Virus record (IMG/VR): IMGVR_UViG_3300020477_001012
Span: 32,001-96,000 of that record
Strand: one strand, 5' to 3'
From: a virus
Length of the DNA: 64,000 nt
The translations under genes were made by a program, and so were the position numbers. Positions 12,087-13,355 of this stretch are shown in pieces; position 1 is the stretch's first letter, and each line of letters begins with the position of its first letter. The notes beneath the pieces are model-generated. The model had not been told where the DNA came from and did no database searches. It saw only the letters and a program-made list of their open reading frames with translations.

Positions 12087-13355
12087 ATGATGAGGATAAA
12101 GGTTAAGCGTAATGCGAAGTTAATCGGATTAGATACACGAGAGATTGATGAAGACCACAAAAGGACGATCCAGTTGTGTAGACGTGTCTCAAAGTATATT
12201 AGAAAAGAAATAGTGGATGGGAATATTGTTGAGATCAATAAGCGGGTTATCTACAAAGATGGAACATCCTTAGACAATACCGCATTTAAAAACAAAGTCA
12301 GTCACCTGTTTGACGACGATGCTCATGCAGAGTCTCTTAGGAGAAATTCTGTAATCTATGTCATGGAGAGATATGCCGGATATATCAGTCGGAACGGACT
12401 GGATAGATTTCTAAAAATCAAATCACCCATCTCTATCAAGGATACCTCTTTTTATTTTAAAGACAACTTCAATAAGATAGATAAAGAGAATAAAATCCTG
12501 TACGTAAAAACAATGTTCACGGGGGACAGGGAATACAGGAAGGTTCCTTATAAGTATGTGCTTAAAGGAGATAAAATTTCAGAGGATAAGAAACATGGTG
12601 GCAATTTAACTTTTCCTCGCAAAAAGAACAAGGCAAAAACATATGTGATCGCTGTTGACTACGAGAGGGAACCTGCATACGAACCTGAAAAATTGATTGG
12701 GTTTGATCTTAATAAAGATAAGAAATCTTGGATAGTTCTTGACGATGGGCAAAGAATCACTCCAAATCAACAAATACAAGACTCCACAGAGAACATCCGT
12801 GTTTTAAATACAACTCTGGACAAGGATAAGAAGGCTCCTATTGATAAGAGAAGCCTTAGAAGCAAGGATAGGAGACCTATTAGGTTGAAGTGGAAGAAAG
12901 CTCATAGTAAACTAAAAGCTGAGATAAGCAAGGTGGCTGAGACTGTCGTGAATAAGGCTAGAGATGAGAAAGCACTGCTGTGTATTGACAGTGTTACAAC
13001 TGGGCAGAAAAATGGCACATTTGGTCAAGATCATTTAATCGAGACGCTTCAAGTAATGTGTGAGAACCAAGGTGTTCCATTCTATGTCGTACCATGCAAA
13101 AATACATCTCGTAGATGTTCATCTTGCGGGTATATCGCTAAGGGTAACAGGGTAAACACAGACGAATTCCATTGTGAAGATTGTGGTCATAAGTGTGACG
13201 CACAAAATAATGGTGCAAAAAATATTGTCTTTCAAGGTCAGAGAATGTATAATGCGGGTGTCCCCTATGGGAATTATAGAAGACGCGCAGTAGACACTCT
13301 GGTAAAAGAATACTCTCAACAAGAAAGTTCAGTTGATACCTCTGAGGCGAGTTGA
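12087..13355 (+). CDS. TnpB/Cas12f-like RuvC + Zn-ribbon protein with a degenerate active site (putative nuclease-dead)
   Basis: RuvC-I LIGFDLN; RuvC-II LLCIDSV (E>D); TSRRCSSCG...FHCEDCG; RuvC-III DAQNNGAKNI (D>Q versus DRDxNAAxNI); no tnpA nearby. Confidence 0.85.
   Translation: MMRIKVKRNAKLIGLDTREIDEDHKRTIQLCRRVSKYIRKEIVDGNIVEINKRVIYKDGTSLDNTAFKNKVSHLFDDDAHAESLRRNSVIYVMERYAGYISRNGLDRFLKIKSPISIKDTSFYFKDNFNKIDKENKILYVKTMFTGDREYRKVPYKYVLKGDKISEDKKHGGNLTFPRKKNKAKTYVIAVDYEREPAYEPEKLIGFDLNKDKKSWIVLDDGQRITPNQQIQDSTENIRVLNTTLDKDKKAPIDKRSLRSKDRRPIRLKWKKAHSKLKAEISKVAETVVNKARDEKALLCIDSVTTGQKNGTFGQDHLIETLQVMCENQGVPFYVVPCKNTSRRCSSCGYIAKGNRVNTDEFHCEDCGHKCDAQNNGAKNIVFQGQRMYNAGVPYGNYRRRAVDTLVKEYSQQESSVDTSEAS

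Follow-up and report, generated by a model that had tools for sequence, protein, structure and literature searches.

We describe here a phage gene whose product is a true relative of TnpB and Cas12f and that belongs to a large, essentially phage-only lineage carried by uncultured marine T4-like phages. Judged from the residues that are kept at and beside its three canonical positions, the RuvC center of this lineage looks like a remodeled metal site that is still under selection rather than a dead one, and we lean slightly toward the view that it is still catalytic on DNA, on RNA or on both. The protein would be a functional member of the lineage that most likely acts as a ribonucleoprotein together with the ~60-nt pseudoknotted small RNAs (sRNAs) that flank its gene.

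The window, by which we mean the whole stretch of 64,000 nucleotides that was analyzed, comprises bases 32001-96000 of a 173.8-kb IMG/VR virus genome with a CheckV completeness of 100%. The phage is T4-like, as seen by the presence of RIIA, NrdA, a DnaB-like helicase and a two-part DNA polymerase, and almost every longer ORF of the window is on the + strand. The TnpB-like gene, which is present in a single copy in the phage genome, is bracketed by tRNA-Ile(UAU) and tRNA-Leu(UAA), with a putative promoter located upstream of a transcription unit composed of a small ORF, an sRNA, a tRNA and the TnpB-like gene. The features are as follows:

3941-4006 and 4008-4074, + strand: two sRNA units
11576-11603, + strand: sigma-70-like promoter, TTGACT-16-TATAAT, 11/12 (a consensus match only)
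11782-11845, + strand: sRNA unit A (covariance model R1, 67.2 bits), which stops a few nt before tRNA-Ile
11848-11921, + strand: tRNA-Ile (UAU)
11921-11988, + strand: sRNA unit B (covariance model, 58.1 bits), which begins right after tRNA-Ile
12008-12071, + strand: sRNA unit B2, weak and divergent (covariance model, 23.5 bits, E 0.01)
12087-13355, + strand: TnpB/Cas12f-like protein gene, 422 aa, ATG start, 0 internal stops
13311-13375, + strand: sRNA unit C0 (nhmmer), which covers the last ~15 codons and the stop of the ORF
13373-13438, + strand: sRNA unit C (covariance model, 62.6 bits), which stops 2-3 nt before tRNA-Leu
13441-13526, + strand: tRNA-Leu (UAA)
21284-21347 and 21347-21410, + strand: two sRNA units within the span of a permuted tmRNA gene

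Searching the complete 173.8-kb phage record for TnpA (Y1; PF01797) gave no match, while control genomes did match. Parts of the TnpB-like ORF (12513-12663 and 12899-13358) are covered by assembled contigs from two metatranscriptome libraries, which is a weak hint of expression given that DNA carry-over is possible. The phage tRNAs decode A-ending codons, specifically Ile-UAU (11848-11921), Leu-UAA (13441-13526) and Arg-UCU (20461-20533), and these same tRNAs again adjoin the homologous gene in relatives. Located 3' of tRNA-Leu is a stretch of ~390 nt (13527-13915) that is devoid of + strand ORFs of at least 50 aa and that ends at a sigma-70-like promoter (13885-13913). This stretch is unlikely to be the omega-RNA of the protein because neither locus L003 nor locus L031 has it in conserved form downstream of the homologous gene. 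Elsewhere in the window the DNA polymerase is split over two ORFs of 542 and 519 aa (56251-60581) that both match phrog_405, and the ORFs of 224 and 160 aa that lie between the two halves (57876-59029) may constitute an inserted mobile cassette.

Several independent comparisons place the product in the TnpB/Cas12f superfamily. The sequence-only reading, which had been made from the letters of the DNA before any search, named three motifs, a zinc ribbon and a full-length ORF, all of which are found in the 422-aa product: GFDLN at residues 205-209, LCIDSV at 298-303, DAQNNGAKNI at 371-380 and a complete CxxC-15-CxxC ribbon (C344/C347/C363/C366). The Pfam TNB zinc ribbon family (PF07282) matches at 1e-13 (51.6 bits versus a cut-off of 26.3) and PHROG 'transposase' families match at ~1e-20. 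The NCBIfam models guided_TnpB (NF040570, 55.4 bits) and IS200_TnpB (NF038281, 21.8 bits) score under their cut-offs of 100 and 425, respectively. An AlphaFold2 model, for which 74 homologues served as input, has a mean pLDDT of 93 and matches AsCas12f in Foldseek with an E value of 2.6e-13. The structural alignment to ISDra2 TnpB and Cas12f that had been proposed as a check was also run, with VIA giving whole-length matches to AsCas12f (Z 17.4) and to ISDra2 TnpB (Z 16.6 over 327 residues, model residues 4-390) that together cover model residues 4-408, while natural dCas12f structures cover model residues 1-335 only. The bilobed WED-REC-RuvC-TNB fold is thus present by the AlphaFold2 model, Foldseek and VIA alike, and the canonical D-E-D triad of the RuvC domain is absent, with hhalign to canonical TnpB giving D207-D301-Q373 in its place. 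There is no repeat-spacer organization of a CRISPR array near the gene; the repeats found there are structured units in which conserved and variable positions are interleaved.

The three residues D207, D301 and Q373 are confirmed to occupy the canonical D-E-D positions. Specifically, hhalign of the family profile against the canonical IS605 TnpB InsQ of Salmonella phage SJ46 (probability 98.7%) places D207 opposite the Asp of GLD, D301 opposite the Glu of VIEDL and Q373 opposite the Asp of NADxNGA (NADxN), and phmmer against AsCas12f gives an identical RuvC-III register. In the AlphaFold2 model the triad residues take the canonical places, with D207 and D301 at the ends of strands 202-208 and 296-301, respectively, and Q373 where helix 372-389 begins. 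The altered triad that had been read from the letters (D kept, E>D, D>Q) is therefore borne out. When the residues were compared across 74 homologue clusters from a word-index search (33-73% identity), D207, D301 and the four Cys residues were each found in 74/74, and position 373 was Q in 40 clusters, H in 34 and D or E in 0, counts which indicate that the Q373 pattern is not a matter of chance.

Additional analysis with an exhaustive HMMER search returned 1,725 representatives at E <= 1e-3 (189 of them at E <= 1e-10), and a lineage alignment was assembled from 198 sequences (50%-identity representatives, each at least 340 aa). Asp is present at RuvC-I and at RuvC-II in 198/198 of these sequences, and at RuvC-III there are 59 with D, 83 with H, 54 with Q, one with G and one with A; a D-D-D triad is consequently carried by 59/198 relatives. 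The sequence-only reading took the E>D change as a sign of inactivation. However, because Asp is fixed at this position throughout the lineage, including the 59 D-D-D members, E>D is a lineage trait and not an inactivating lesion. On a FastTree phylogeny with the catalytic column masked (one topology of 50%-identity representatives, midpoint root), the RuvC-III residue changes state ~30 times by parsimony versus ~92 times for shuffled labels, the state inferred at the root is D, and the window protein sits in an all-Q clade of 27 representatives. At position 373, D is encoded by GAT in the one D-class locus that was read, H by either CAT or CAC, and Q by CAA. The other residues that a single-nucleotide change could produce from Asp (N, E, G, A, V and Y) are essentially missing at 373, which argues that this position is constrained and not free.

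A further property of the Q forms is the residue located two positions upstream. The window protein has the motif C-D-A-Q, in which D371 precedes Q373 by two residues, and the Q class as a whole has Asp at -2 in 43/54 sequences, Asn in 10/54 (Asp or Asn in 53/54) and Ala at -1 in 53/54, as compared with Asp at -2 in 7/83 of the H class. At the level of clades, D-A-Q is found in 16/17 independent Q-only clades and Asp at -2 in 10/46 non-Q clades (Fisher p 2e-7, the clade counts resting on a single FastTree topology of 50%-identity representatives). The N-A-Q form, which has a carboxylate at neither position, accounts for 10/54 Q-class sequences, including near relatives P0004-P0008 of the window protein, and is confined to two Q clades where it is a minority beside D-A-Q in both. 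The ancestral Cas12/TnpB motif is often D-x-D and, together with the D-A-Q coupling, this suggests that the site requires either a carboxylate at one of the positions 371 and 373 or else a His at the latter. The sequence-only reading had itself named other acidic residues in the active site as what would overturn a dead nuclease; at the level of sequence D371 supplies such a residue in nearly all of the Q clades, but the N-A-Q proteins do not have it. Since Gln almost always comes with Asp two residues upstream, metal binding and catalysis are probably kept, in which case the remodeled site would cleave phosphodiesters, with target DNA or the system's own RNA precursors as candidate substrates.

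Conservation around the site points in the same direction. D207 and D301 are 100% conserved in the D, H and Q classes, and N209, T340, S341, R355, the four Cys residues, N375 and N379 are conserved at ~90-100% in the H and Q forms, which is equal to or above their conservation in the D forms. By this measure the pocket is not relaxed in the H and Q forms. There are 19 invariant columns across the 74 clusters (35-73% identity to the window protein) and the reading frame is open in 26/26 loci that were read. The dN/dS comparison among homologues, which had also been proposed as a check, gave values of 0.04-0.32 for eight pairs with measurable dS, with a value of 0.057 for the window versus its 72% identical relative L029. 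The earlier description of an intact full-length gene under purifying selection, rather than a decaying transposon, has thus held up.

We also analyzed the short repeated units that surround the gene. The window contains a total of nine ~60-nt units, all on the + strand, with several abutting a tRNA or the tmRNA. Unit B2 terminates in a T7 run just 5' of the ribosome-binding site of the ORF, and the unit at 3941-4006 starts ~6 nt after a perfect sigma-70 promoter (3908-3935). A structure alignment of 37 units from the window and six relatives revealed an 8-bp helix P1 that encloses a hairpin P2, and an H-type pseudoknot that arises from pairing of the P2 loop with the 3' tail. The three helices covary: 89% of cells are paired versus 68% in shuffles and 156 cells show double-sided changes versus 55 in shuffles, with 0/500 shuffles reaching either value, and shifting the register brings pairing down to 41-52%. 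None of the 4227 Rfam covariance models reaches its gathering score on the units anywhere in the window, and a search of 11700-13950 at E <= 5 gives only the tRNAs plus chance-level matches that fall on the two tRNA genes, inside them or in the ORF. The units are a new structured RNA family that is short, multi-copy and interspersed with tRNA and tmRNA genes. Known self-cleaving ribozymes and other Rfam families were considered as identities for the units and rejected for want of a match. PeSL cassettes, which consist of a stem-loop plus a sigma-70 promoter (PMC4122927), were rejected as well, as the units are built of three covarying helices and show no promoter consensus.

The units at 21284-21410 fall within the span of a permuted (two-piece) tmRNA gene at 21193-21622 (Rfam RF04321, 91 bits; tag AKPSFALAA), so tmRNA maturation may release them. 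Strain variation was also seen in the units. A strain that is 95-99% similar (metagenome runs X7 and X10; 11781-11822) has an extra tandem unit before tRNA-Ile with its own compensating P1 arms, and strain variants have runs of substitutions in the junctions of unit A (11830-11834) and unit B (11974-11976) where the flanks differ by 1-2%.

Every homologue locus that was inspected is flanked by these units or by analogous sRNAs, across 24-72% protein identity. In the window and in loci L002, L003, L004, L008 and L029 a unit overlaps the 3' end of the ORF. Model R1 gave no significant match on the D-class loci L025 and L032-L034 or on L027, and the D-class loci have different unit types as seen by eye. 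Specifically, longer units of ~70-85 nt flank the D-D-D relatives (L032 300-615 and 1871-2100; L033 700-979 and 2292-2420), and these have a similar logic of helix plus loop-to-tail pairing as well as U-tracts. One D-class unit has a perfect TTGACA-17-TATAAT promoter and a U-tract, which indicates that it is a stand-alone sRNA gene.

In regards to its distribution, the lineage is nearly missing from 185,579 species genomes, where the one match is on a 3.4-kb contig of a Flavobacteriales MAG. A search of 50,697 GenBank phage records gave only distant canonical TnpBs for the protein family and nothing for the sRNA units. The lineage is frequent in marine viral metagenomes, and DNA runs of at least five studies contain half or more of the sampled words of the stretch. 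Near relatives are likewise located in tRNA clusters, with the genes of L002-L006 following tRNA-Arg and that of L003 being followed in turn by tRNA-Leu, and the L031 gene (61% identity) is syntenic in that it comes after rIIB and tRNA-Ile. The contig of L029, the closest relative, carries GAPDH, a 183-aa ORF, the TnpB-like gene and an IMPDH-like gene in an order that differs from the window, which was compared with it over these regions:

12096-16567: window region compared with L029
34603-37463: window region compared with L029
45879-46946: window region compared with L029

By this comparison, modules have been shuffled in the early region of these phages. An empty-site comparison, in which related loci were sought via the proteins of the upstream and downstream ORFs, returned no relatives. 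In one DNA contig of run X10 the end of tRNA-Ile is separated from the start of tRNA-Leu by two letters (11922->13439), so that the gene and units B, B2, C0 and C are all skipped. This joint may represent an empty site, with its shorter side being only 37 nt at a likeness of at least 85%, and it may come from another phage.

The sRNAs are probable partners of the protein, a relationship suggested by the fact that they are co-located and co-diverging. Under this interpretation the unit that overlaps the 3' end of the ORF would be placed like a TnpB omega-RNA, and the other units would be released beside tRNA and tmRNA processing sites or from their own promoters. The one variable stretch of the units is ~14 nt long and is made up of the P1 3' strand plus the junction, and there is no obvious free guide; what comes after a unit is in many cases a tRNA, a further unit or a U-tract, and no guide was identified there. 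When the 14-nt variable segments and the 16 nt located 3' of each unit were compared with the rest of the 173.8-kb phage genome, there was no above-chance match, and this search of the phage genome identified neither a guide nor a TAM.

The main competitor of a catalytic site is a nuclease-dead RNA-guided binder, in which loss of the RuvC-III carboxylate ends cleavage and the protein, together with a neighboring sRNA, represses or blocks DNA as do TldR, Cas12k and dCas12f. We regard this as possible but doubtful. It draws on the presence of Q373 at the position of a catalytic Asp, where Gln is a poor stand-in for a metal-binding carboxylate and where we know of no active example with Gln, and on the N-A-Q variants that do not have a nearby carboxylate either. 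It also fits the missing TnpA, the strong purifying selection, the stable inheritance of the gene, with the L031 homologue (61% identity) at a syntenic site, and the location of the gene within a sigma-70-promoter (early-type) region. According to the TldR paper, mutating any DED residue in characterized TnpB/Cas12 enzymes abolishes DNA cleavage; the main text of a TnpB mutational-scanning preprint makes no per-residue statement on the catalytic positions. However, D207 and D301 are invariant in the 137 H and Q representatives whereas a dead site should drift, position 373 is limited to D, H or Q and is coupled to D371, and the C-terminal TNB and R355 are kept, unlike in TldR and dCas12f. The E>D argument for inactivation fails on the fixed Asp, and the D>Q argument is ambiguous. 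Thus, from the earlier proposal that the protein binds but does not cut, what stands is a selected, non-decaying gene without TnpA; its dead nuclease does not follow as argued, given the fixed RuvC-II Asp, the constraint at 373, the coupled D371 and the conserved pocket. No guide-target match in support of the proposed repressor or blocker role was found in a search confined to the phage genome.

Whether the protein and the sRNAs are partners is a separate question from that of catalysis. They could instead be unrelated, with the units being independent early-region elements such as processing signals or terminator-like or recombination cassettes, in a role comparable to that of PeSLs, and the gene being a selfish homing-type insert among them and the tRNA genes, as is T4 segB. 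Consistent with this, four of the units are ~8 kb from the gene, on either side of it, the neighborhood of the gene is rearranged in L029, and one strain variant has an extra unit. The tRNA-Ile/tRNA-Leu joint would also fit as a possible empty site, subject to its 37-nt shorter side and possible origin in another phage. In addition, a strict unit pattern retrieved four more IMG/VR fragments, and the three that were searched (those other than L037) lack the gene but are only 7-10% complete, too little to be informative. We nevertheless find such an arrangement quite unlikely, as every inspected locus across 24-72% identity, the D class included, has units or analogous sRNAs beside the gene, a unit overlaps the 3' end of the ORF in six loci, the three covarying helices and lack of a promoter consensus set the units apart from PeSLs (PMC4122927), and neither the protein family nor the units turned up in the search of 50,697 GenBank phage records. 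Finally, a decaying transposon remnant without function might be read into the missing TnpA, the non-canonical triad and the guided_TnpB score of 55.4 under a cut-off of 100. This is refuted by the selection and conservation data, specifically the intact frames, the dN/dS values, the 19 invariant columns and the pLDDT of 93, and we give it virtually no credence.

Like ISDra2 TnpB and Cas12f, the phage protein has the full-length fold with the PF07282 TNB zinc ribbon and the TS..C..CG and N.A.NI motifs, and like TnpB it has a structured RNA that overlaps the 3' end of its ORF. It differs from TnpB and Cas12f in its triad, which is D-D-(D)AQ where theirs is D-E-D, and in that its lineage is essentially missing from the species genomes. 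In contrast to IS200/IS605 TnpB it comes without TnpA or IS ends and scores under the NCBIfam cut-off. Its RNAs also differ from those of TnpB and Cas12f, as the phage units are stand-alone multi-copy pseudoknots of ~60 nt with no evident 3' guide and no CRISPR array. Mariner transposases use a DDD triad and Argonautes use DEDH or DEDD. D-D-H is the active triad of the RNase-H-fold nuclease in the C-terminal domain of UvrC (PMC10085695). These three show that Glu to Asp and Asp to His changes at equivalent positions are compatible with catalysis, although the phage proteins have no sequence kinship with them beyond the RNase-H fold. Cas12c/Cas12m-type effectors, in which RuvC processes RNA while DNA is bound and left uncut, may offer a working analogy, but they are CRISPR-associated and have kept D-E-D.

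TldR and natural dCas12f-sigmaE are likewise TnpB-derived and phage-borne, lack TnpA, and have a non-canonical RuvC and adjacent non-coding RNAs. TldRs have deteriorated active sites and many are C-terminally truncated, and they have a downstream gRNA whose guide matches a promoter beside a TAM and are associated with fliC or oppF (TldR paper). In contrast, the phage protein has a complete C terminus (RuvC-III/TNB), unlike both TldR and dCas12f. It also differs from TldR in that D207 and D301 are invariant, position 373 is constrained and coupled to D371, and its gene neighbors are tRNAs and sRNAs, with no guide or target found in the phage genome.

We put forward as a tentative and rather improbable extension of these results that all parts combine into a phage-restricted, TnpB-derived RNA-protein system of new design. 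Such a system would have multiple ~60-nt pseudoknotted sRNAs that tRNA/tmRNA processing sets free or that are made from promoters of their own, an internal ~14-nt specificity segment, and a catalytic D-D-(D)AQ or D-D-H RuvC center. Compact genome editors are built on TnpB and Cas12 enzymes, whose D-E-D center is regarded as obligatory. A large natural lineage with D-D-[D/H/Q] plus a compensating nearby Asp would widen known RuvC chemistry, and the three canonical positions alone are a poor ground for naming homologues nuclease-dead. Should the protein indeed work with the sRNAs, no smaller or more unusual RNA component would be known in the superfamily, and the sRNAs would also be a natural counterpart of engineered tRNA-gRNA polycistrons. 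An internal 14-nt specificity segment together with a rebuilt catalytic RuvC center would, if true, give the Cas12/TnpB superfamily both a novel guide architecture and a novel natural catalytic variant.
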